From Nitrososphaeraceae archaeon (GTDB lineage: Archaea > Thermoproteota > Nitrososphaeria > Nitrososphaerales > Nitrososphaeraceae), in contig DATGZA010000063.1 of assembly GCA_035297365.1 (NCBI GenBank), forward strand, positions 1-64,000: 64,000 nucleotides of DNA. The letters run 5' to 3'. Under the pieces are notes generated by a model that was not told where the DNA came from, made no database searches, and saw only the letters and a program-made list of their open reading frames with translations. Shown here one piece after another: positions 37,009-48,922 of this stretch. Position 1 is the stretch's first letter, and each line of letters opens with the position of its first letter. The position numbers and the translations under genes are program-made.

Positions 37009-38379
37009 TCAAATCTCAATTAACTTTACGATATTTTTTTCTTTGTTTACCTCCAGTGCATACATTTTTGATAAAGGATGAAGTAAATTAACACAGAGTA
37101 CATCATTAATTAAGACAAGTTGAAAATGGAAATCAGGAAATATTACACCAGAATATTTATTTGAAACATCAAACGTCTTTAACATAAATATTATATTCAT
37201 ATGATTCTTTAGATTATCTAATGCTGCAAGGTCTATTTTTTGATCCGTGTCTATATCTATAATACTAAATATAGGAGATTGAGATTTAAATTTCTCTATC
37301 TCATCAATAAAATCATATGACTGCATATTTTCTGTAACATGCTGATCATTTTCAGAATTATTTCCAGATTTTTTAAAGAAATTAATATATCTGATCAATT
37401 CATCATCATGATTTTTAATTATCTGATTTAATAATAAACTATATGAATTTTTCAAACTATAGTCTAAAAATATGGAGTATAATTTTTCCATCGATTCACT
37501 AATAAATTGTGATAAAAAAATAATAGCGGCATTGATTCCAATTCTAGGATCATATTCAATCAGGACTACAGACTTATCTAAAAAACCACCATTAAAATCT
37601 CTGTCGATAACCTCATATCCAGAACTAAATTTCTTAGCAGTAGACAAATTTGAGGATTTATCTAAATCAGATTCAGAAATTTGGATCGACGGTGAAGAGG
37701 GATCTCTATAGGATTCAAATGTCTTAAAAATACCTTCATGTAGTGTGAATAAATAAGAATTTTTTATTACATTTACTCCTCTTAACTTATTTAAAGATAT
37801 TTCTCTGAGATCTCTTCCGTAATAATTTTTGTTCCTTAATATCACTACCCCATCAACTAAATAATCCAATGTGGATGTGGCTGTTCCTTCTCCGACTAAT
37901 ATTAGACGGCCGCCCGCTCTTTCTAACCAAGTCTGTAATACTCTTTCGTTGTTTAATCTGGATTCTCTATCCATAAAAGATGCCACACCATCCCAACTGT
38001 CGACAATAATTAAGGGAGCACGTACGTCCATAAGTTGATTTGTAATTCGTTCAAATAGGGACTCTGGTTCATCCAGTCGAGCATCTTCGAAAAATGGTCC
38101 AAACGTAGTTTCAGTTTTAGAAGATTTATTATGTAGATTGGAAGATTTGATTTTAAGGTATTTATTTACCCATTTAAAGTAATAAAATAATTTATTTGGA
38201 GAAACTCTAGTAGATATGTAAAAGAAATTATTTTTAATATTCAATTCCTTTAAAATAGCAAGACACAATGCTGTTTTACCGATACCAGGTTCACCTTTAA
38301 TTAATAACGAATAAGTTTCATTTTTAAGAAAAAGTAATAGTTCATCTGGTATTTTAAAAGCTTGATTATTTTTGCTCAA
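37009..38379 (-). CDS. KaiC/GvpD-like P-loop ATPase with a degenerate second domain
   Basis: GEPGIGKT, YISTRVS, IVDSWD, LDYLVDGVV and KLRG; second half begins FSSGYEVIDRDFNGG but lacks Walker A. Confidence 0.85.
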   Translation of the reverse strand: MSKNNQAFKIPDELLLFLKNETYSLLIKGEPGIGKTALCLAILKELNIKNNFFYISTRVSPNKLFYYFKWVNKYLKIKSSNLHNKSSKTETTFGPFFEDARLDEPESLFERITNQLMDVRAPLIIVDSWDGVASFMDRESRLNNERVLQTWLERAGGRLILVGEGTATSTLDYLVDGVVILRNKNYYGRDLREISLNKLRGVNVIKNSYLFTLHEGIFKTFESYRDPSSPSIQISESDLDKSSNLSTAKKFSSGYEVIDRDFNGGFLDKSVVLIEYDPRIGINAAIIFLSQFISESMEKLYSIFLDYSLKNSYSLLLNQIIKNHDDELIRYINFFKKSGNNSENDQHVTENMQSYDFIDEIEKFKSQSPIFSIIDIDTDQKIDLAALDNLKNHMNIIFMLKTFDVSNKYSGVIFPDFHFQLVLINDVLCVNLLHPLSKMYALEVNKEKNIVKLIEI

Positions 38380-38476: not shown

Positions 38477-39574
38477 TTAAGGTAACCATGGATTGATATT
38501 TTTCTGAAATCGTAATGAATCTATTAATCCTTCTGCATAACCAATGCTTAAGACGGCTAATTCATATTTATTTTGATTAAGAAATCTCTCTGAATCAAGC
38601 AAGTAATATTCAGCGTTTTCTAGTACATTGTACATGCCCTTATTATCAGGTTTATTGTTCTTAGTAGAGATACTATTTTCTTTATCTAGAAATGACTTCA
38701 TTTTTTTTAGCGCTTCTTTAGCTTTTGGGAGATATCTGTTAACCATTGATACGGCAAGGTGTTCGAATAGTTTTGTATTATCAGATGGATTGTCAAAATT
38801 TTGATAAAGTGATGTTATAGAATCAATTTCAGTAAAGTGAAGTTGTCCGGGAATGATTATAGAATGAGGTCCTTCACCAAAATCAATATTTTCAAAAGAA
38901 TGAATCTTTCCTGATTGAATTTTTTGAGAATCCGTTCCAATTCTTGATCCAACTATAATAAAAGTTTCCTCTGATATAATTCCATATTTTAGATCTTTTT
39001 CAACTTCCACTAACATTTCAAGAGCTAATTGAGGATTTAGAAAGAAAAAATCTTTATCATCCTTATTGTTATATTCTGTTAATATCAAGGTATGATTTCC
39101 TACTTTGAGATTTTCATAAATAATATTATAGACACTTATTGCAGATGGAGGATCTGACATTATTGTAGTGGTACGACCAAATTTATAGTTATGAAGGCCA
39201 CTTTCCCCCATGAAAGAAAAAAGTCCAGAAGAGCTGTGAACAATACGTGTTTCAATTAAATTTCTTTTAGCTCTGATCAGTAATTCATTCATTGTTGTTG
39301 CCATAAATGGGTCACCATAAGTTACTATTGCAACAATTGCATTTTTAGATTTGGAAAGTATCTCTTTTCCATCTTCAATAAACCAACGTTGCACTAAATT
39401 AATTTTTTTTTCCTTTTCGGGATCTATAAGTTGAGCTAGTTTTTCTATTTCTTTTTTACTTATGTAACTCGTAAATCTTTCAATATAAATTATCTGACAA
39501 CCTTTCATAATTTCTATAGCATTTAAACTTATACTGTTACAACCGTCTATTCCTATTCCAACAAAGTATAACAT
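38477..39574 (-). CDS. dph5: Diphthine synthase with C-terminal DUF357-like extension
   Basis: MLYFVGIG, GDPFMATT, GLHNYKFGRTTT, GPHSIIIPG.LHFTE; tail AEYYLLDSERFL...SIGYAEGLID. Confidence 0.93.
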   Translation of the reverse strand: MLYFVGIGIDGCNSISLNAIEIMKGCQIIYIERFTSYISKKEIEKLAQLIDPEKEKKINLVQRWFIEDGKEILSKSKNAIVAIVTYGDPFMATTMNELLIRAKRNLIETRIVHSSSGLFSFMGESGLHNYKFGRTTTIMSDPPSAISVYNIIYENLKVGNHTLILTEYNNKDDKDFFFLNPQLALEMLVEVEKDLKYGIISEETFIIVGSRIGTDSQKIQSGKIHSFENIDFGEGPHSIIIPGQLHFTEIDSITSLYQNFDNPSDNTKLFEHLAVSMVNRYLPKAKEALKKMKSFLDKENSISTKNNKPDNKGMYNVLENAEYYLLDSERFLNQNKYELAVLSIGYAEGLIDSLRFQKNINPWLP

Positions 39575-39629: not shown

Positions 39630-40745
39630 TTATTTTCTTTGATAATTGTGTAACCTGGACATATGAAAAAGGGATCTTTTAAAGACCTCTATTCCGGTAA
39701 TATATTCCTGGATATCAACATGCTCGTCTATACTATGAGACGAATGAGGATCTCCCGGTCCATAAGTAACTACAGGTATTTTAAGCGCATTACCAATAAT
39801 ATTCATGTCACCAGTGCCCGTTTTTCGTAATAAATTCGGTCGTTTTTTACAGACATCCAGAATTGCAAGAACTAGAGACCTTACCAATGGAGATGAATGA
39901 TCTGCTTCAAATGGATCTGTAAAATCTTCGATTATATAATTGGATTTTATTCCTTTTTGACTAGATATATTAGAAATTACTTTATCAATCATGTCCAATA
40001 CTTGTTGACATGTATTTGTAGTAGGAATCCGTATGTCCATGGTAAGCTTACATTTTTGAGGAGTAACATTATGACTCGACCCTCCAGTTATTTCCGTCAG
40101 ACTGCAACTTATTGAACTAGTTTTTTTTTCACTATTGTTTGTTTTGTTAATTTCCTTTTTTATGGCCTGCCAAAACTCATAAGATTCTTCAATCGAATTT
40201 TTTGCTAGCCAAGGGGCACTTGCATGAGCACTTTGGAGGACGTCGCAAATTAGTTTAATTGCTAATCTACCTTTATACGATATCGTTATGTTCTCTATAC
40301 CGCTCGGCTCACCAAAAATGGCATAATCAACACCTATATTATTTTTAACAAGTTGTTTGCTACCAGTAGCGCTTCCTTCTTCATCTACTACACCTGCGAA
40401 AATAATAGTTCCGTTTTGTTTAGGAAATTCCGAAGCTGCTAAGAGCATGGCGATTAAAGGAGCTTTAGCATCTGAGGCACCACGACCATACAATAAACCA
40501 TCTTCTATTCTGATAGGCACTTTATTTGGAACTGTATCCATATGTCCGCAAAGAAGAATCCTAGGATATCCTGTTCCCTTTGTAGCTATAACATTTCCTA
40601 CACTATCTATCTGAGCTTGTTCAAATCCCAGATCATCAATACATTTTTCCTTAAGCATATTAGCTAATTGAGATTCAGATCTTGAGGGTGTATAGAACTC
40701 TATTGCTCTTTTTAAGAGCTCCACAGCATAATTAGGTGAGACCAA
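39630..40745 (-). CDS. lysK: [LysW]-lysine/[LysW]-ornithine hydrolase (M20 family)
   Basis: GHMDTV, GRGASDAK, DEE, KTGTGDMN and YGPGD; operon context. Confidence 0.92.
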   Translation of the reverse strand: MVSPNYAVELLKRAIEFYTPSRSESQLANMLKEKCIDDLGFEQAQIDSVGNVIATKGTGYPRILLCGHMDTVPNKVPIRIEDGLLYGRGASDAKAPLIAMLLAASEFPKQNGTIIFAGVVDEEGSATGSKQLVKNNIGVDYAIFGEPSGIENITISYKGRLAIKLICDVLQSAHASAPWLAKNSIEESYEFWQAIKKEINKTNNSEKKTSSISCSLTEITGGSSHNVTPQKCKLTMDIRIPTTNTCQQVLDMIDKVISNISSQKGIKSNYIIEDFTDPFEADHSSPLVRSLVLAILDVCKKRPNLLRKTGTGDMNIIGNALKIPVVTYGPGDPHSSHSIDEHVDIQEYITGIEVFKRSLFHMSRLHNYQRK

Positions 40746-40759
40746 TTTTAATAATAATA

Positions 40760-41620
40760 TTAGTTGTATTGCAAAGAGTAATCAACTATCATATCTTGAA
40801 TTGGTACTCCTGTTACTCTGACAGTATTTTTAAACTCTGTTGTATTATTAACTTCGTGAACCAATAAACCATCTCGTGAACTTTCCATAAGATCTACTCC
40901 AACTATTTTTCCATCTACTGCTTGTGTAGATTTTATACATATATCTTCGAGCTCTTTTGTAATTGGACATGATTCTGCTCTGCCTCCTAAAGCCATATTG
41001 GTTTTCCATTCGCTATTTTCCGAATAACGATATATAGCAGCTACTACTGTATCGCCTATTACTATTGCTCTTATATCTCTAGGCGGTCTATCAACAAATT
41101 CCTCAAAATAATATATTTGATAAAGTGGAAACATATGTTGTCTATCTTCAATTACGGCCTTCGCTGCATCTTTGTCTTTTAGTAACGCAATTAATCTTCC
41201 CCAACTTCCAATTGTAGGTTTAATTATGGTCGGATATCCAAAAACATCAAGAGCAGAAAGTGCGGCTTCATATGAAAAAGTTGTTATGACTTTGGGAGTT
41301 TTTATTCCAGCGTTTTTCAATTTCATATGTGTAAATAATTTATTACCACAAACAATAGAAGTATTAAGTGGGTTAATAACACTAGCTCCCAAACCTTCCA
41401 GTGCAGCAGTAGAATGAAGACTTTTGAAATAACTAACACATCTTTGTATAATTATTTTATTAGAATAGCTAGGACCGTCTAGTTCCAAAATTAGATCTTT
41501 ACAATCCACATTCGTTATGTCAATTCCTCTTTTTCTAGCAGACTCGTAGATAGCTTTTTCTTCCCAGCGTATATTATCATAAAGAAGAGTGAGGGAGGTT
41601 GTGTTCTTTCTCTCAGTCAC
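40760..41620 (-). CDS. lysX: Alpha-aminoadipate--LysW ligase (ATP-grasp)
   Basis: GSWGRL, WKTNMALGG and EVNNTTEFKNT; likely GTG start at 41620 overlapping the lysW stop (GTGA). Confidence 0.92.
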   Translation of the reverse strand: MTERKNTTSLTLLYDNIRWEEKAIYESARKRGIDITNVDCKDLILELDGPSYSNKIIIQRCVSYFKSLHSTAALEGLGASVINPLNTSIVCGNKLFTHMKLKNAGIKTPKVITTFSYEAALSALDVFGYPTIIKPTIGSWGRLIALLKDKDAAKAVIEDRQHMFPLYQIYYFEEFVDRPPRDIRAIVIGDTVVAAIYRYSENSEWKTNMALGGRAESCPITKELEDICIKSTQAVDGKIVGVDLMESSRDGLLVHEVNNTTEFKNTVRVTGVPIQDMIVDYSLQYN

Positions 41621-41784
41621 TGTCCCCAATCCTCGCCAACTACTTGAGATGGCTTAATACTGAATCCATCTGCTCCCTTGACTAGTTCATAGCTTGAACC
41701 ACAATCTGGACAGGCAACTATTTCGCCTTCAATTGAATCATCGGGGATTCTTATTTCTGCGTCACATTCTTTACATTTGACCAT
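41617..41784 (-). CDS. lysW: Amino-group carrier protein LysW (55 aa, ends EDWGQ); not in the ORF track
   Basis: MVKCKECDAEIRIPDDSIEGEIVACPDCGSSYELVKGADGFSIKPSQVVGEDWGQ*. Confidence 0.95.
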   Translation of the reverse strand: MVKCKECDAEIRIPDDSIEGEIVACPDCGSSYELVKGADGFSIKPSQVVGEDWGQ

Positions 41785-41790
41785 ATTCTT

Positions 41791-42999
41791 TTACTCCTTT
41801 ATCACATTTGGCGATCCTTCATTAAGTATTTTTCTTTCTAGACGTTCATCCAGAAACAATTCTAAAACGTCACCCATCCTAAGTTCCTTTAATCCACGGG
41901 CGAGAGTTTCAGCCTCATGTTTGCTCGTTTCGAGACCCAATAACGATAAAAGGTAAGCTGCTCCGTTTTTACCTGCTAGCTCGCCAAAAACGATTTTTCT
42001 TCTATTTCCTACAAGTTTGGGTTCAATTATCTCATAAGCAGAAGGATTTCGAAGAATGGCTGCAAGATGTGTTCCTGCTTTATGCTTATATGCACTATCA
42101 CCTACGATCGGTGTAGATTCTGGAATGTCCAGACCTGTATATTGAGATATTGTTTTTGATAAATCTTTCAACATATGTAACCTAAAATTATTGCTAGATT
42201 TGTAAATGAGATTTAAAGCTATAGAAGTTTCAGCGAGAGAAGGTATTCCGGTTCTTTCTCCGAATCCATCTATTGTTGTGTGAATCTGATCTGCACCAGC
42301 TTCACATCCAGCCAATGCATTTGCTAGTGCCAATCCAACATCATTGTGACAATGAACATCAAGTGAGCTCTTGGAATTGTCAATATTATCATAAACCATT
42401 TTCACCAAATTATACATGCCATTTGGTCTCATAATTCCAACAGTATCAGGGATACTTATTCTTTCAACGCCCAGTCCATTAATTTCTTTGCACATTTCTA
42501 ATAGAAATGAGGGTTCAGTTCTACTCGCATCCTCCATTGTAAATCGAGATTTTAATCCATGGGATTTTATATATTCGACTACTTCTATTGCTCTCATTTT
42601 TGCTTCTTCTCTAGAAATTTTTAATTTAGCACTTAAATGTATATCAGAAATTCCCATATATGTCGCTACCCAAGTAGCGTTAGTTTTAATTGCTGTATCC
42701 ACATCAGATTTTATTGCCCTAACATGGGCAACAATATCTGCTTTTAATCCTTGTTTAATTATGATTTTGGTTGCTTCAAAATGATCTTGAGAAACAACGG
42801 GGCTGATCTCTATTTGATCAACTCCAAAAGAATCTAACATCCACGCAATTTGAATCCGCTGTTTGCTAGTAAAAGATACTCCAGGATGTTGTTCTCCTTC
42901 TCGTAGAGTCGAATCTAGAACCTTTATTTTTTTTTGTCCCTCACTTACTTTATTATAGTAGTGCGCATAATAGTTAGGATCATCCGATTTTAGTGTCAT
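41791..42999 (-). CDS. hcs: Homocitrate synthase (LeuA/DRE-TIM family)
   Basis: DSTLREGEQ, HCHND, GERTG and HKAGTH; directly upstream of lysW-lysX. Confidence 0.85.
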   Translation of the reverse strand: MTLKSDDPNYYAHYYNKVSEGQKKIKVLDSTLREGEQHPGVSFTSKQRIQIAWMLDSFGVDQIEISPVVSQDHFEATKIIIKQGLKADIVAHVRAIKSDVDTAIKTNATWVATYMGISDIHLSAKLKISREEAKMRAIEVVEYIKSHGLKSRFTMEDASRTEPSFLLEMCKEINGLGVERISIPDTVGIMRPNGMYNLVKMVYDNIDNSKSSLDVHCHNDVGLALANALAGCEAGADQIHTTIDGFGERTGIPSLAETSIALNLIYKSSNNFRLHMLKDLSKTISQYTGLDIPESTPIVGDSAYKHKAGTHLAAILRNPSAYEIIEPKLVGNRRKIVFGELAGKNGAAYLLSLLGLETSKHEAETLARGLKELRMGDVLELFLDERLERKILNEGSPNVIKE

Positions 43000-43114: not shown

Positions 43115-43540
43115 TTACTTCAGAGTTTTAAGGATAATCACTGTATTGGTATCAGAAACACCTACAATTTTTCTTACATCATCAATGTATGAATTTATTT
43201 CGGAAATAGTAGAAGCACTTATTATTGCTGCAATATCATATTGTCCAGTTATCTCGTATACTACTTTTACTCCTCCCAGATTCAACAACCTAGAGGTGAC
43301 GGTAGAAGTATCTGAAGTAGAAGCGACTGAAATTAGGGTTATTGCGCTTGTCTCTTCCTTTTGATTTACTTCAATAGTAAATTTTTTTATTATTTGATTT
43401 TCTATTAAATTTTTAACTCTTCTTCTTACTGCAGATTCTGAAAGTCCGACAGAAGTAGCTATTTCTACAAATGATTTACGTGAATCATTTTGTAGGATCC
43501 GAATAATTTGTTCATCAAAAGAATCAATATTATTTAACAT
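43115..43540 (-). CDS. lysM: Lrp/AsnC-family regulator LysM
   Basis: DSRKSFVEIA..VGLSESAVRRRV and YEITGQYD; inside the lys cluster. Confidence 0.88.
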   Translation of the reverse strand: MLNNIDSFDEQIIRILQNDSRKSFVEIATSVGLSESAVRRRVKNLIENQIIKKFTIEVNQKEETSAITLISVASTSDTSTVTSRLLNLGGVKVVYEITGQYDIAAIISASTISEINSYIDDVRKIVGVSDTNTVIILKTLK

Positions 43541-44711
43541 TTCTTCTAACCTCTTCTTTGCTCAATATATTATCCATGATTTCCAAGGTTTTTAATACCT
43601 TTACTTCATCTAACACTAAAGGAGGAAGTAACCGAATTATATTTCTGCCTGAATATAACATAAGAAGTCCTTCTTTTATTCCATCCATTAAGACATCTCT
43701 AACATCAAAGCGTAATTCTACTGCAAGCATCAATCCTAATCCTCTTACGTCTCGAATTATTTTATGTTTTTTTTGTAGTTCTAATAATCCATTTTTAAAT
43801 AAATTTCCTATGTGAAGAGCATTTTCTACGAGCTTATCTTCTACAATGGAATCAATTGTAGCTATTCCTGCAGAGCAGGCAAGTGGATTACCAGCGAAGG
43901 TTGATGAATGCTCACCGATTTTTATGGAATCAAGAATTTCAGGTTTACAAAGAGTCAAGCCCATAGGCAATCCACCAGCAATACCTTTGGCAAGACACAT
44001 AATATCAGGAGTAGTTTTCCAATTTTGTCCGGCCCACATTTCCCCTGTCCTACCCAATCCAGTTTGGATCTCATCAAAAATTAATACTAGATTATTACGG
44101 TCACAGATTTCTCTAATTTCTTGTAAAATTCCATCTTCCGGGACTATTATACCAGTTTCTCCCTGGATTGGTTCAACTATTACGGTTCCGATACTTTCAT
44201 CCAATACCTCCTCGATCACTGACGGAGTATGGGGTGGAACAAATTTTACTCCTTCAAGTAGGGGCTGGAATGATTTTCTATATTTCTCATTGAATGTTAC
44301 AGATAAAGCCCCGAAAGTTTTTCCATGATATCCACCATTCATAGAAATTATTCCACTTTTTCCAGTATACTTCCTCGAAAATTTAATTGCTGCTTCTACG
44401 GATTCTGCTCCACTATTACTAAAGAAAAACCTTGAAAGTTGTTTCGGAGAAATTTCTGATATTTTTTGCAGAAATTTTAATCGTGTATCATTATAAATCG
44501 ACATGTGACAAGTTATTAAATTCTCTACTTGCTCCTTAATTGCCTGTACCACCCTATCATTACAATGCCCAACCAAGGCGACTCCATATCCTCCCATACA
44601 ATCAATATATTCTCTGCCAGATGTATCCCAGACTGTCGCGCCTTTCCCCTTTGCTATATTGATAGGAAACCTCTGGTAGATGTTTCCTACATAAAGATCC
44701 TCGCCGTTCAT
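43530..44711 (-). CDS. lysJ: [LysW]-aminoadipate/glutamate semialdehyde transaminase
   Basis: SGAESVE, EPIQGE, DEIQTGLGRTG and LAKGIAGG. Confidence 0.93.
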   Translation of the reverse strand: MNGEDLYVGNIYQRFPINIAKGKGATVWDTSGREYIDCMGGYGVALVGHCNDRVVQAIKEQVENLITCHMSIYNDTRLKFLQKISEISPKQLSRFFFSNSGAESVEAAIKFSRKYTGKSGIISMNGGYHGKTFGALSVTFNEKYRKSFQPLLEGVKFVPPHTPSVIEEVLDESIGTVIVEPIQGETGIIVPEDGILQEIREICDRNNLVLIFDEIQTGLGRTGEMWAGQNWKTTPDIMCLAKGIAGGLPMGLTLCKPEILDSIKIGEHSSTFAGNPLACSAGIATIDSIVEDKLVENALHIGNLFKNGLLELQKKHKIIRDVRGLGLMLAVELRFDVRDVLMDGIKEGLLMLYSGRNIIRLLPPLVLDEVKVLKTLEIMDNILSKEEVRRNVK

Positions 44712-45508
44712 TTGCTAATCACCGTACAATTATCATGAGAAAGAGCTGCAGATATAGGATTTTCTACATTGCCCGATGCAATAATCGCTTCTTTTACACC
44801 CATTTCTATAGCTTCCGTACAAGCAAGAACTTTCTTTTCCATTCCATGACCAATTTTGGGCAGTGATGCCTTAGCCTCGGTATAATTCATATTTTTCACT
44901 AACTCATCCTCTAAAATTAAACCATTTACATTGGTAATAAAAATAACTTTATCTGCCCTCAGACTCCCCGCAATATATGCCGCAGCCCTATCACCATCTA
45001 CATTTAGAAATTCAGTTTCCTCACTCAAAGCGATCGGAGAAATGATAGGAACAAAACCATTTGACAATAATATCTTTATCAAAGCAGGATCTACATTTTT
45101 TATTTTTCCAGTATATCCTCCATCGATTGCCATCTTCCTTCCCTTTGCATTAAGAATAACCAATTTTTTCTTTCTTTCTGCTTTTATGGTTGCACCATCA
45201 ATTCCAGAAATACCTACTGCAAGGATATTACTATTCAATAACATTTGGACAATGGCTTTGTTTATTTTACCGGACATCACCATCGTATAAATCTCTACAG
45301 TCTCTTTGTCTGTATATCTACTCCTCACACCTCCTGGAGAGACTATAAACTTTTGTTCCTTACCTAATTTATTTCCAATATTTGTGACTTCTTTTCCCCC
45401 GCCATGTACGAGAACAATTTTTTCATTTTCCAGCAAAGTTTTGATGTCAGAAATAGTAGAAGGATGTAATCCATCTACTATACTTCCACCTATTTTGATA
45501 ACTATCAT
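44708..45508 (-). CDS. lysZ: [LysW]-aminoadipate/glutamate kinase
   Basis: VIKIGGS, VHGGG, SRYTD, NVDGD and GMEKK. Confidence 0.94.
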   Translation of the reverse strand: MIVIKIGGSIVDGLHPSTISDIKTLLENEKIVLVHGGGKEVTNIGNKLGKEQKFIVSPGGVRSRYTDKETVEIYTMVMSGKINKAIVQMLLNSNILAVGISGIDGATIKAERKKKLVILNAKGRKMAIDGGYTGKIKNVDPALIKILLSNGFVPIISPIALSEETEFLNVDGDRAAAYIAGSLRADKVIFITNVNGLILEDELVKNMNYTEAKASLPKIGHGMEKKVLACTEAIEMGVKEAIIASGNVENPISAALSHDNCTVISK

Positions 45509-46557
45509 ACTGGAGTCAGAGGAGTGTATCTGAGACCATCCATTTCATCAAATCCAAACATGACATTCATATTTTGGATTGCAGATCCTGCGGCACCTTT
45601 CATTAAATTATCAGAAGCGGACAGTGCAACAACACGTTGATTATCTTCATCTATATCAAATCCGATATCACAAAAGTTTGAACCTATCAAAAATTTCGGA
45701 TCGGGGAACTTGTAAAGTCCTTTTTTATCTTTTATGAGACGTATAAATGGTTCATGACTGTAGAACTCTCGATAAACTTTCCAAAGATCTAACTCACCAA
45801 TGGGCTTGTTGAGAAATGTATGATTTGTAGTTAGTATTCCTCTAACAAGATTTACCGCATGAGGACTCATACTAATCTTGATCTCTTTTTTTGCTAGGAG
45901 ACTTAATTCTTGTATTATTTCACCAGTATGCCTATGTTTTGCTGGTTTATATGGTCGAATTACTCCGTATCTCATGGCATGATGAGTACCTGCGTTAGCT
46001 TGAGCTCCTGCCCCAGAAGATCCAATTTTACTATCAACAACGATATGATTCGTGTCAATAAGATCATGTTCTATTAAGGGTTTAAGTGCTAGTAAAGAAG
46101 TGACTGCCATACATCCTGGACACGAAACCAATTTTGCGGTTTTTATCTCCTCGCGATGAAATTCTGGGACACCGTATATAGACTTGGAAAGAAGTTCTGG
46201 ATATGGATGCTCCCATCCATACCACTTTACATAATCTTTGGGATTTTTTAATCTAAAATCAGCAGAAAGGTCTATAATTTTAACATCGCCTTCGTAGAGA
46301 TCTTTCACTATTTGATTTGCACTTCCATGTGGAACTGATACAAAGACCAAATCACATGAGTCTAAAACTTTTTTAATATCCATTGGTGAAAAAGTGAGAT
46401 CAATGAATCCTTTAAGACTTGGATGAACTCTATGTACGTATTCCCCTGCTTGTTGTCGAGAAGTCACCATATTAAGCTCGACTTTTGGATGACTTACAAG
46501 TAGTCTAATTAACTCGCCACCAACATATCCTGATGCTCCTATGACTGCTACCTTCAT
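45505..46557 (-). CDS. lysY: [LysW]-aminoadipyl/glutamyl-phosphate reductase (ArgC-like)
   Basis: GASGYVG, DLSADFR, PGC, HRH and DNLMKGAAG. Confidence 0.94.
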   Translation of the reverse strand: MKVAVIGASGYVGGELIRLLVSHPKVELNMVTSRQQAGEYVHRVHPSLKGFIDLTFSPMDIKKVLDSCDLVFVSVPHGSANQIVKDLYEGDVKIIDLSADFRLKNPKDYVKWYGWEHPYPELLSKSIYGVPEFHREEIKTAKLVSCPGCMAVTSLLALKPLIEHDLIDTNHIVVDSKIGSSGAGAQANAGTHHAMRYGVIRPYKPAKHRHTGEIIQELSLLAKKEIKISMSPHAVNLVRGILTTNHTFLNKPIGELDLWKVYREFYSHEPFIRLIKDKKGLYKFPDPKFLIGSNFCDIGFDIDEDNQRVVALSASDNLMKGAAGSAIQNMNVMFGFDEMDGLRYTPLTPV

Positions 46558-46662: not shown

Positions 46663-47517
46663 TTATTTCTTTGAAAACTGAAGAACATAATCAATCATGT
46701 GACCTGCAATATTAGATTGCGATACCTGAGAGGCCCCACGAAATTCGACATTGCTATTAATTTCATGAACTACAAACCCTCGAGTTTTATCTTCCATTAC
46801 ATCAACACCAAGTATTCCCCCGCCAACTGCTTTCGATGCATTTAGAACAATCTCCTCAAGCTCATTAGTTAAAGGAGCTAGGGCAGTATGACCTCCTCTG
46901 GCTACATTTGTTCTCCATTCATTCTCTGCAGAATAACGATATATTGCAGTTACGATTTGATCTCCTACTACAATACATCGAATATCGCGTGGCGGTCTCT
47001 TTATCATTTCTTGAACATAATATATTCTTGAAAATGGAGAATCGTTTTCTTCCCGTGTTTCTATCAACATATTTGCAATCTCTTCATTTCTTACCGGAAA
47101 AACACCACGTCCCCAAGATCCCACAATTGGCTTTAAGACAATTGGATAACCAAGTTTATCGATCAGAACTTTAAATGAATCTGAGTTAAAGCAAAGATAT
47201 GTTTTTGGACCAGCTACTTTTGATTTTGCTAAAATTAGGGATGTTCTTAATTTATTTCCGCATATTTCGCTTACTTCATACTTGTTTATTACCGGATATC
47301 CCAAGAACTCTAAACAAGAAGTGATATAAAGTCCTCTAAAATGACTGATACATCTTTGTAGAAAAATATCTCCAAAATATTGATTATCATTAAATTCAGT
47401 ACTTATTGAAACAGATTTTGCATCAAGTAATCTAGTATTAACTCCTTTCTTTACTGCATCATCGTAGAGAGCTTTTTCTTCAAATCGTAGTTTATCATAA
47501 ATAATAGATAGTTGCAT
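46663..47517 (-). CDS. argX: Glutamate--LysW ligase (second LysX paralogue)
   Basis: GSWGRG, WRTNVARGG and EINSNVEFRGA; downstream of argG-lysW. Confidence 0.82.
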   Translation of the reverse strand: MQLSIIYDKLRFEEKALYDDAVKKGVNTRLLDAKSVSISTEFNDNQYFGDIFLQRCISHFRGLYITSCLEFLGYPVINKYEVSEICGNKLRTSLILAKSKVAGPKTYLCFNSDSFKVLIDKLGYPIVLKPIVGSWGRGVFPVRNEEIANMLIETREENDSPFSRIYYVQEMIKRPPRDIRCIVVGDQIVTAIYRYSAENEWRTNVARGGHTALAPLTNELEEIVLNASKAVGGGILGVDVMEDKTRGFVVHEINSNVEFRGASQVSQSNIAGHMIDYVLQFSKK

Positions 47518-47529
47518 TTTTTTTCAAAT

Positions 47530-47703
47530 TTATTCTCCCCAGTCTTCTCCTACAGATTCTGCATTTTTTAATTCAATGTTACCATTTGACTTTGAAGATA
47601 TTTCAAAGTCACCTCCGCAATCAGGACATGAAACAATTTCGCCAACCACGGCATCGTCTGGAATATTTATTTCTCCTCCACAATCACTACATTCTTTCTT
47701 CAT
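47530..47703 (-). CDS. lysW: Amino-group carrier protein LysW (57 aa, canonical EDWGE); not in the ORF track
   Basis: MKKECSDCGGEINIPDDAVVGEIVSCPDCGGDFEISSKSNGNIELKNAESVGEDWGE*. Confidence 0.96.
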   Translation of the reverse strand: MKKECSDCGGEINIPDDAVVGEIVSCPDCGGDFEISSKSNGNIELKNAESVGEDWGE

Positions 47704-47704
47704 T

Positions 47705-48922
47705 CTATTGTTCTTCTCCTTTATTCTCTTTTTTATTTAAATTAATTGCTATAGAATTTGCAGTAACCGATTGTAATCCCCATAATTCAACAAAACCCTT
47801 CGCTAATGTTTGATCAAAAATAGAACCAGAAGAATAAGTTGCCAATTCGTTTTTGTACAAAGAGAATTCTGATCTTCTTCCTACAACCCTTATAGAACCG
47901 TTTTGCATTCTCATCTTTACTGTTCCTGTAACTCTGTTTTGCGTTGCATCTATAAACCTATCCAAATCGTTTACCAATGGATCTTGCCATAATCCTGAGT
48001 AGGTCATCCAACTCCATTGTTGGTCTACCAAATGTTTAAATCGTAATTCATAGGAAGTTAAAACCATTTTTTCAAGATCTTGATGTGATTCGATCAAGAC
48101 ACAAGCAGCTGGACATTCATAAATTTCTCTAGATTTGATACCTATTACTCTATCTTCCACATGGTCAATTATGCCTACCCCATAAGACCCTGCCTTAATA
48201 TTTACATAATTTATCAAATCTGCCAAATTCATTCTTTGTCCATCTACACAGACAGGAATTCCCGCTTCAAAATCAATTTCTAAATATCCTGCTTTCGGAT
48301 TATCAAACTTGACATATTTGAAACACTCATCTGGTGGTTCATTTAATAGATCCTCTAGATCGCCACCTTCAATAGATCTGCCCCATAAATTTTCGTCAAT
48401 GCTATATCTCTTTACCTCAGTATTTACAGGTATTTTATGTTCGTTGGCAAACTGTATTTCTTTATCTCTTGTCAGATTCAAATCACGTATCGGAGCAATA
48501 ATTTTTAGATCAGGATTTAAGCATCTAATAGTAATGTCGAATCTTATTTGATCATTACCTTTTCCGGTACATCCGTGTGCAATGTATTTTGCATTTTCCG
48601 TTGTTGCTATATCTACAGCTTTTTTAGCTATTAAGGGCCTTGCTAAGGCTGTAGCCAACGGATATTTATTTTCATACAATCCATTTGCTTTTATAGATGG
48701 AATGATGTAATTTTGGGTGAATTCTGAGGAAGCATCAATGTTATGATGTTTTATGGCGCCTACTAGTTTAGATCTATTTGCTATCTCCTCGAAATCATCA
48801 TTCTGTCCAATGTTTACGGTAACAGTAATTACATCTAGATCATGCAATAACTGTAAATACTTTATACATACTGAAGTATCAAGACCACCCGAATAGGCAA
48901 GTACGCATTTCTCTTTAACCAT
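47705..48922 (-). CDS. argG: Argininosuccinate synthase
   Basis: LAYSGGLDTS, HGCTGKGNDQIRF, DENLWGRSIE and GIKSREIYE. Confidence 0.97.
   Translation of the reverse strand: MVKEKCVLAYSGGLDTSVCIKYLQLLHDLDVITVTVNIGQNDDFEEIANRSKLVGAIKHHNIDASSEFTQNYIIPSIKANGLYENKYPLATALARPLIAKKAVDIATTENAKYIAHGCTGKGNDQIRFDITIRCLNPDLKIIAPIRDLNLTRDKEIQFANEHKIPVNTEVKRYSIDENLWGRSIEGGDLEDLLNEPPDECFKYVKFDNPKAGYLEIDFEAGIPVCVDGQRMNLADLINYVNIKAGSYGVGIIDHVEDRVIGIKSREIYECPAACVLIESHQDLEKMVLTSYELRFKHLVDQQWSWMTYSGLWQDPLVNDLDRFIDATQNRVTGTVKMRMQNGSIRVVGRRSEFSLYKNELATYSSGSIFDQTLAKGFVELWGLQSVTANSIAINLNKKENKGEEQ

Follow-up and report, generated by a model that had tools for sequence, protein, structure and literature searches.

Amino-group carrier proteins of the LysW/ArgW type are described from Thermus thermophilus, Sulfolobus/Sulfurisphaera, Thermococcus kodakarensis and Natrinema gari. 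They possess a four-cysteine zinc ribbon and an EDWG tail, and their genes lie in a neighbourhood that encodes LysX/ArgX ligases bearing a GSWGR motif together with LysZ, LysY, LysJ and LysK. The passages available of PMC10433800 report that the amino group of the substrate is joined to the gamma-carboxyl of the C-terminal Glu of the carrier, as the preliminary description of the present locus had also taken to be established, that EDWGE is the conserved carrier motif read by the ligase GSWGR, and that an E54A exchange in Natrinema ArgW leads to arginine auxotrophy. What defines this route to lysine and arginine chemically is a single group, the carboxyl on the side chain of the carrier's last Glu. 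The window analysed here is a stretch of 64,000 nucleotides from a Nitrososphaeraceae archaeon (GenBank assembly GCA_035297365.1, contig DATGZA010000063.1, positions 1 to 64,000 of the forward strand). It encodes a carrier, LysW, of the same family and in the same neighbourhood, but its last residue is Gln and the acceptor is missing as encoded. By comparative evidence this Gln end is real, conserved and functional, and it is interchangeable with Glu without a change in the ligase. On balance we favour, as an inference, a carrier synthesised in an amide-capped form that a core pathway enzyme, with LysK as the preferred candidate, would then deamidate to Glu.

The minus-strand open reading frame (ORF) 41784..41617 translates as MVKCKECDAEIRIPDDSIEGEIVACPDCGSSYELVKGADGFSIKPSQVVGEDWGQ. 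Its product matches the LysW models PF21344 (1.6e-12, 47.3 bits against a cut-off of 27, Pfam scan) and NF041070 (83.8 bits against a cut-off of 75, NCBIfam scan), which places it in the family. It can be aligned end to end with the solved LysW chains 3vpb_E, 3wwl_A and 5k2m_E, all of which end in EDWGE, and its Q55 lies opposite their last Glu. The two CxxC pairs of the zinc ribbon (C4, C7, C25 and C28) are invariant across 45 carriers, and a GSWGR-bearing LysX/ArgX neighbour is found inside the LysZ/Y/J/K cluster, whose order is kept in relatives. These scans and the ORF confirm the preliminary description of a Gln-ending LysW in the lysine branch, immediately 5' of LysX. The EDWG residues are kept while Glu is replaced by Gln, and the encoded carrier could offer a Glu acceptor only after deamidation. 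Judged by its residues, the feature is a LysW family member that, as encoded, is without the defining acceptor group of its family.

The stop codon of lysW is the TGA at 41619-41617, directly after the CAG codon (41622-41620) on the minus strand. The G of this CAG and the TG of the TGA form a GTG at 41620-41618 that opens the frame of LysX, a 289-aa ATP-grasp protein. That a GAG would be equally compatible with the overlap had been pointed out beforehand, and GAGTGA is indeed found at the same place in relatives with an E-ending lysine-branch carrier (G231, G179, G212, G201, G254, G307, G315, G335, G329, G306 and G114). The overlap with the lysX start was considered as the cause of a C instead of a G at the codon and rejected, given this natural GAGTGA; it may be the reason for the third base G in the lysine-branch copy.

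Contigs from four public runs were compared with window positions 41300-42100, with the proviso that such contigs may hide rare variants and are no proof of transcription. The DNA contig X6, from another study, spans this whole interval with no difference at 41617-41625, and in the RNA-library contigs X15, X16 and X18, which come from three studies and extend over 41612-41648, the interval 41617-41625 is likewise free of listed differences. Among 72 homologues from a collection of 5.8 billion proteins, 60 end in EDWGQ and 6 in EDWGE, one in EDWGQWDWGQ and one in EDWDQ, and four are frameshifted or cut. A sequencing error or private mutation, with orthologues ending in EDWGE, had been named beforehand as what would undo the observation; the independent contigs, the homologues and the genome survey below rule it out. 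The duplicated tail and the EDWDQ tail (proteins P0013 and P0036) are rare departures. To note, many metatranscriptome contigs from three studies end or begin at 41623-41648, in the conserved lysW tail; the DNA contig is continuous there. These ends are probably assembly forks between co-occurring strains and not RNA ends.

The survey of carrier ends covers 301 genomes of the class of the window, at least 80% complete and including its own genome; the class counts contain the unpublished genomes G115, G213 and G265, which alter no conclusion. The LysW family model finds a match in 291 of them (543 matches in total), and an EDWG tail followed by E or Q accounts for 536 of these 543 matches. A DNA pattern for EDWGQ followed by a stop occurs in 240 genomes (265 matches), bearing out the suggestion in the preliminary description that other thaumarchaea have Q-ending LysW. 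By family, it is present in 42/42 genomes of f1, the family of the window, in 190/192 of f2, 6/10 of f3 and 1/4 of f5, and in 0/51 of the other eleven families. The reversed pattern, used as a control, has no match in the 301 class genomes and two in 401 phylum genomes; the EDWGQ-stop matches are beyond chance. The corresponding EDWGE-stop pattern is found in 256 class genomes (271 matches): 14/42 in f1, 187/192 in f2, 10/10 in f3, 6/8 in f7, 0/10 in f8, and every sampled member of f4-f6 and f9-f15. Family f8 has LysW matches in only 2 of its 10 genomes, both weak.

Within f1, a closer set of 61 genomes, including the unpublished G319 and G320, has a pattern match in 59, of which 43 have Q-ending matches alone. 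The two carrier paralogues differ in sequence and lie about 5.9 kb from one another, which allows them to be distinguished, and the family holds all four combinations of their ends. A lysine carrier in Q with an arginine carrier in E is seen in the window and in four genus mates; the reverse, E in the lysine carrier and Q in the arginine carrier, in five g6 genomes and four g71 genomes. Both carriers end in Q in G168, of the same genus as the window, and in g3, g4, g5, g7, g65, g66, g67 and g68, and both end in E in G306. The Gln end had been presented as a feature of the lysine branch: this stands for the window but fails as a limit, as the arginine-branch carrier of relatives also ends in Gln, sometimes beside an E-ending lysine carrier. 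An E-only state characterises the more deeply branching lineages of both order and class (f4, f6, g29 and g37, and, where a carrier was found, f7 and f9-f15), and E looks ancestral in these lineages, the trees being unrooted. One pattern match, in G103, reads TGG instead of a stop and was dropped.

For the history of the exchange, 131 carrier-ligase pairs were taken from the fetched loci. Four were dropped (L008, with a frame cut at the contig end; L010, whose longest frame lacks GSWG; L017, cut and with an over-long frame; and L085, in its second copy, with a frame of 627 aa), and the rest was de-duplicated to 116. The ligase tree, a quick IQ-TREE run with SH-aLRT support only and unrooted, has an ArgX clade of 36 rows, a LysX clade of 74 and 6 deep rows. 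When the terminus of the cognate carrier is placed on it, at least 10 changes are needed, well-supported branches requiring no fewer than 4 of these, against a mean of 32.8 for shuffled labels. The tree of 106 short carrier representatives gives 10 changes on the best tree and just 2 forced by supported branches; because it is too poorly resolved, the counts of origins lean on the ligase tree. On the ligase tree, E and Q have been swapped at least about ten times, in lysine and arginine carriers both.

Codon use points to the residue itself. The last Q codon in f1 is CAA in 15 and CAG in 4 of the arginine-type carriers, and CAG in 24 and CAA in 6 of the lysine-type carriers. Among 25 sampled lysine-type carriers of f2, the last codon is CAG in 24, whereas the synonymous sites next to it vary, the Asp codon being GAT in 13 and GAC in 12 and the Gly codon GGG in 18, GGA in 6 and GGC in 1. 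CAA and CAG both occur while the residue stays, so that conservation of Q acts on the protein. Selection therefore maintains a Gln end on the lysine carrier of f2 and a Glu end on its arginine carrier, whereas in f1 the states flip.

The ligases do not follow these changes. No ligase column tracks the carrier end consistently in 8 sister contrasts between ligases with an E partner and those with a Q partner. A T-versus-R column running in the same direction in five contrasts is an artefact, the last lysW codon being read in the LysX frame 5' of its likely start. The N/S position after the HEVN motif was also rejected as a ligase adaptation, as N accompanies E carriers in f2 ArgX and S accompanies Q carriers in three of four g65 ArgX. 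GSWGR and the HE[VI]N..TEF active-site stretch are identical whichever the end of the partner, namely HEVNNTTEFKNT in LysX and HE[VI]N[NS][TN]VEF[RKH]G in ArgX. The comparison thus describes a ligase without co-adaptation to the carrier end, for which E and Q would be interchangeable.

Many genomes rely on Q-ending carriers exclusively. In f1, the EDWGQ-stop pattern occurs without any EDWGE-stop in 28/42 genomes. In genus g5, each of the 15 genomes contains two LysW matches and two EDWGQ-stops but no EDWGE-stop, and all 8 genomes of genus g2 have one LysW, which is Q-ending; several of these g5 and g2 assemblies are single contigs, 99% complete. Two LysX-family ligases above the curated cut-off are found in G142, G154 and G103 (closed g2 genomes with one Q carrier), in G167 (g5) and in G344, from outside the class. 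The arrangement is that of Sulfolobus, one carrier facing two ligases, but with a Gln end. Because the Q-only genomes retain intact ligases, the Q carrier must, on this comparative ground, be functional.

Two gene arrangements in these genomes may be described. The closed genome G142, from a sister genus, has lost ArgW, the carrier gene of its arginine branch: ArgX directly adjoins the ArgG-like gene (L191, 7275-9337), and the single Q-ending LysW lies 6 kb away, beside LysX. In G344 (L192, 1963-2817), the second ligase has no adjoining carrier gene.

Q-ending carriers extend beyond the ammonia oxidisers. Across the 401 genomes of the phylum, the EDWGQ pattern also occurs outside the class, in 13/16 genomes of f23 and 9/27 of f29, and in G476 and G485; a further match, L103 in G371, is not a LysW and was dropped. 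Five outside-class genomes have a single LysW each, Q-ending (with the tails AEDWGQ, SEDWGQ or GEDWGQ) and located in LysY-LysZ-LysW-LysX-LysJ clusters. A motif taken from these carriers matched 176 relatives in 185,579 species genomes, and the 80 retained include records titled Candidatus Caldarchaeum subterraneum, Ca. Caldarchaeum sp., Ca. Terraquivivens, Aigarchaeota archaeon, Nitrososphaera sp. and Ca. Nitrosopolaris. A profile of the 45 carriers gave 1122 matches among 1.84 billion cluster representatives, and 148 new ones of the best 150 were examined. An intact tail is present in 114 of these 148 (97 E and 17 Q), 8 have variant tails (EDFGE, EDFGQ, ESWGE, FDWGQ, EDYGE, EDGGE), all E- or Q-ending, and 26 are cut, fused or unrelated; among these 148 worldwide representatives, no last residue other than E or Q was seen.

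This restriction underlies the pro-form interpretation: only E or Q occurs, and Gln is the one residue that hydrolysis turns into Glu. An ATP-grasp ligase requires a carboxylate. LysW would be translated with its C-terminal Gln as an amide-capped pro-form, the terminal carboxamide would be hydrolysed to the gamma-carboxylate before first use, and LysX with ATP would then load alpha-aminoadipate exactly as on an EDWGE carrier. A single LysZ/LysY/LysJ/LysK set would complete the chemistry. Release of lysine by LysK would leave the carrier as Glu, with normal cycling afterwards, so that one amide removal per molecule would be enough. In its own genome, 97.1% complete, the two carriers of the window are the only LysW genes; LysZ, LysY and LysK are single-copy beside two ligases, so that one set serves the E and Q carriers alike. 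A single LysZ, LysY and LysK for both carriers argues for one linkage chemistry. Given the repeated appearance of Q in lineages apart from one another, latent activity in a core enzyme would be preferred over a lineage-specific accessory enzyme, and the deamidase would most likely be LysK, with the ligase itself as second candidate. LysK is favoured because its normal reaction hydrolyses the gamma-glutamyl amide bond of LysW-lysine/ornithine, and Gln presents the same bond with ammonia as the leaving group; it may take perhaps half of the weight within the pro-carrier model.

The closest parallel to such a maturation is the Pup/Dop/PafA system. In Pup, a small protein, ATP activates the side chain of the C-terminal Glu for coupling to an amine, and some species encode Gln at this position; the natural Gln/Glu alternation among orthologues is likewise found in the carrier. 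In the passages available of PMC8599861, Dop turns Pup-Gln into the ligation-competent Pup-Glu needed by PafA and is also the depupylase, the same enzyme thus cleaving a gamma-glutamyl amide bond and deamidating the Gln form. The differences are nevertheless clear. Pup is disordered, ends in GGQ/GGE and marks other proteins for degradation instead of serving as a carrier in biosynthesis; PafA and Dop share the fold of glutamine synthetase, in contrast to the ATP-grasp ligase LysX and the M20 metallohydrolase LysK. No homology to Pup, Dop or PafA appears in Pfam/NCBIfam scans of the carrier, LysX and LysK, which gave LysW, ATP-grasp and M20 families alone. The likeness is thus one of mechanism and not of family, and Pup serves as a model of how a Q-ending carrier might operate.

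Several points weigh against a pro-form deamidated by LysK. The reading is built on sequence comparison and analogy, and the comparative evidence equally fits an attachment chemistry that is lineage-wide and ignores the side-chain end. Among the ORFs of the cluster in the window and of the corresponding clusters in relatives, none was recognised as a dedicated amidase, no genome-wide phyletic amidase screen having been made. Thermus LysK also accepts N-acetyl substrates, according to the passages available of PMC12998189. This suggests that LysK recognises the leaving amino acid and not the acyl side, and Gln offers no such amino acid. Finally, a cheap and complete maturation should let E and Q drift, and yet f2 holds a Q lysine carrier in 190/192 genomes and an E arginine carrier in 187/192, so that Q may carry in f2 some benefit that the pro-form model leaves unexplained. 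Doubtful, though of some weight, is the broader alternative that the amide end signals either a new attachment chemistry, with the carboxamide used directly or the alpha-carboxyl taken, or a switch, the carrier being usable only after uncapping by LysK. Thermus LysK binds its product lysine. Were the switch reading true, the end product would throttle the carrier supply via LysK, and the benefit of such gating would explain why nearly all sampled f2 genomes keep Gln on the lysine carrier and Glu on the arginine carrier; a gating role of uncapping, for instance by a product-inhibited LysK, is speculation.

Among the options that had remained in the preliminary description, deamidation gives the best fit to the comparative data. 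Attachment to the alpha-carboxyl, in which LysX/ArgX would phosphorylate the free alpha-carboxylate in a RimK/S6-like manner, with the side chain used for recognition only and the cargo on a peptide bond, is unlikely. LysX is, like RimK acting on S6, a RimK-family ATP-grasp ligase working on the C-terminus of a small protein; it scores within the RimK alpha-L-glutamate ligase subfamily (TIGR00768, 278.6 bits), and RimK structures are among its structure matches. Such an attachment would make an extra enzyme unnecessary and account for the E/Q interchange without ligase change. RimK, however, adds Glu to the alpha-carboxyl, whereas LysX/ArgX use the gamma-carboxyl by published work, and the available text of PMC10433800 reports the gamma linkage for the Thermus LysX-LysW reaction. 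The ligases studied here exceed the LysX equivalog cut-off and have the GSWGR motif and active-site stretch of Thermus LysX (3vpd/1uc8), and LysX of the window matches the Thermus chain 3vpd_A at 3.2e-61. Moreover, the five enzymes X, Z, Y, J and K would all need adapting to a tether two atoms shorter, and a free side chain should tolerate more than the isosteric E and Q, yet no other residue is seen. Unlikely to a similar degree is a direct use of the amide. In this scheme the ligase, unaided by a separate deamidase, would activate the Gln carboxamide by O-phosphorylation or, as proposed for Dop, by phosphate attack; ammonia would be lost as the acyl group moves to aminoadipate, the carrier being Glu after the first turn. 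The core enzymes would suffice, which fits the repeated origins of Q, and the unchanged ligase is also accounted for. No ATP-grasp enzyme, however, is known to use a carboxamide directly, and amine attack on a phospho-imidate would tend toward an amidine and not an amide. A precedent may be seen in Dop, where the side-chain carbonyl of Pup-Gln or Pup-Glu is proposed, in the passages available of PMC8599861, to attack ATP.

Two further explanations remain. The preliminary description had considered a regulatory Q copy, the EDWGE copy serving both pathways; such an unloadable decoy would titrate or regulate the enzymes. An EDWGE copy does lie 5.9 kb away in the own genome, and one carrier serves both pathways in Sulfolobus according to the passages available of PMC12998189. 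But the f1 genomes without EDWGE-stop, the Q-Q genomes of g5 and the single-Q genomes of g2 (28/42, 15/15 and 8/8, as above) lack the copy that would have to do the work. Closed genomes keep Q carriers alone beside intact ligases, as do Caldarchaeum-type genomes, and g6 and g71 have the Q in the arginine-branch carrier and the E in the lysine-branch one; these observations contradict the regulatory role, which is very unlikely. Least likely of all is that Glu is inserted at the last codon during translation by a Glu-charged tRNA-Gln, or that the base is edited in RNA. Archaeal Gln-tRNA is made via Glu-tRNA-Gln, and GatE is present in the own genome (605.6 bits), which speaks for the first of these. 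The use of both CAA and CAG, however, implies no special codon or tRNA, and a leak would affect every Gln codon. As for editing, the RNA-library contigs of the three studies equal the DNA letters at the last codon, although contigs may hide rare variants. What probability is then left belongs to an explanation that has not been thought of. Deamidation of an amide-capped carrier is on balance the favoured interpretation.

No mention of EDWGQ or of a Q-ending LysW occurs in the searchable open full texts; the founding papers under subscription and the supplements lie outside this search, and a remark there is possible. The open full texts likewise hold nothing relevant on LysW with deamidation, and none on LysW with E54Q, E53Q or E56Q, and no carrier term stands together with a C-terminal Gln term among the 15 best-ranked of 137. 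The LysW pathway was gap-filled in the genome-scale model of Nitrosopumilus maritimus SCM1, the passages available of PMC6038301 being silent on the C-terminus. Annotation pipelines name these genes LysW without remark. Nevertheless, the last residue is commonly Gln in the ammonia-oxidising archaea, which are among the most abundant microbes of soil and sea, and in the Caldarchaeum and Terraquivivens lineages, and it is exclusively Gln in many genomes. Either the metabolic models of these organisms all omit a maturation step, or their ligase chemistry differs. The alternation would also be a second, unrelated example of the Pup-Gln/Pup-Glu type.

The cluster around lysW is encoded on the minus strand in the order ArgG-like, ArgW, ArgX, LysY, LysZ, LysJ, LysM, homocitrate-synthase-like, LysW, LysX and LysK, with coordinates and family evidence collected in the table below.

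Table. Genes and sites of the carrier cluster in the window (all positions on the 64,000-nucleotide stretch).
Feature	Position	Strand	Evidence
LysW-type amino-group carrier protein, 55 aa, ends EDWGQ	41617..41784 (including stop)	(-)	PF21344, NF041070, alignment with solved LysW chains
Terminal CAG (Gln) codon, site of the acceptor Glu codon	41620..41622	(-)	Same letters in independent contigs; CAG/CAA in relatives
LysX, ATP-grasp [LysW]-aminoadipate ligase	40760..41620	(-)	TIGR02144 321.4 bits, cut-off 275.6; GSWGR and HEVNNTTEFKNT present
LysK, M20 [LysW]-lysine/ornithine hydrolase	39630..40745	(-)	TIGR01902 273.9 bits, cut-off 163.1; NF003367 281 bits, below the cut-off of 363
Homocitrate-synthase-like gene, directly 5' of lysW	41791..42999	(-)	HMGL-like and HCS_D2 domains; TIGR02146 366 bits, below the cut-off of 413
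LysM-like Lrp/AsnC regulator	43115..43540	(-)	NF040947 172 bits, slightly below the cut-off of 180
LysJ, class-III aminotransferase	43530..44711	(-)	Aminotran_3 2.1e-114; TIGR00707 406 bits
LysZ, [LysW]-aminoadipate/glutamate kinase	44708..45508	(-)	NF010662 287.9 bits, cut-off 194
LysY/ArgC-type reductase	45505..46557	(-)	TIGR01850 429.9 bits
ArgX, second LysX-family ligase, arginine branch	46663..47517	(-)	TIGR02144 285.4 bits; ArgX clade of the ligase tree; motif HEINSNVEFRGA
Second carrier, ArgW type, 57 aa, ends EDWGE, 5' of ArgX	47530..47703	(-)	NF041070 94 bits
Presumed argininosuccinate-synthase-like gene, cluster head	47705..48922	(-)	ORF; same place 5' of ArgW/ArgX in relatives

The gene at the head of the cluster is named ArgG-like from its sequence type, and we presume it to be argininosuccinate-synthase-like on that basis. 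For LysX, the ORF finder takes an in-frame TTG at 41629 as the start. Relatives keep CAGTGA, GAGTGA and once CAATGA at the overlap with the lysW stop, the last of these in L036, where an ATG thus stands at the place of the GTG. Because relatives keep a G/ATG-A at this overlap, the likely start of LysX is the GTG at 41620-41618.

By tblastn (E<=1e-5), the 97%-complete own genome contains no HMGL-type synthase other than the homocitrate-synthase-like gene, whose scores stay under the curated cut-offs for isopropylmalate synthase and homocitrate synthase alike. Either LeuA/CimA lie in the unassembled part, or one HMGL-type enzyme has multiple roles. On the 3' side of lysK are a 365-aa ORF (38477-39574, minus strand) and a 456-aa ORF (37009-38379, minus strand), neither of which, without a family scan, showed any sign of an amidase. 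By their N-terminal sequences, the former is presumably a diphthine-synthase-type methylase and the latter a P-loop ATPase.

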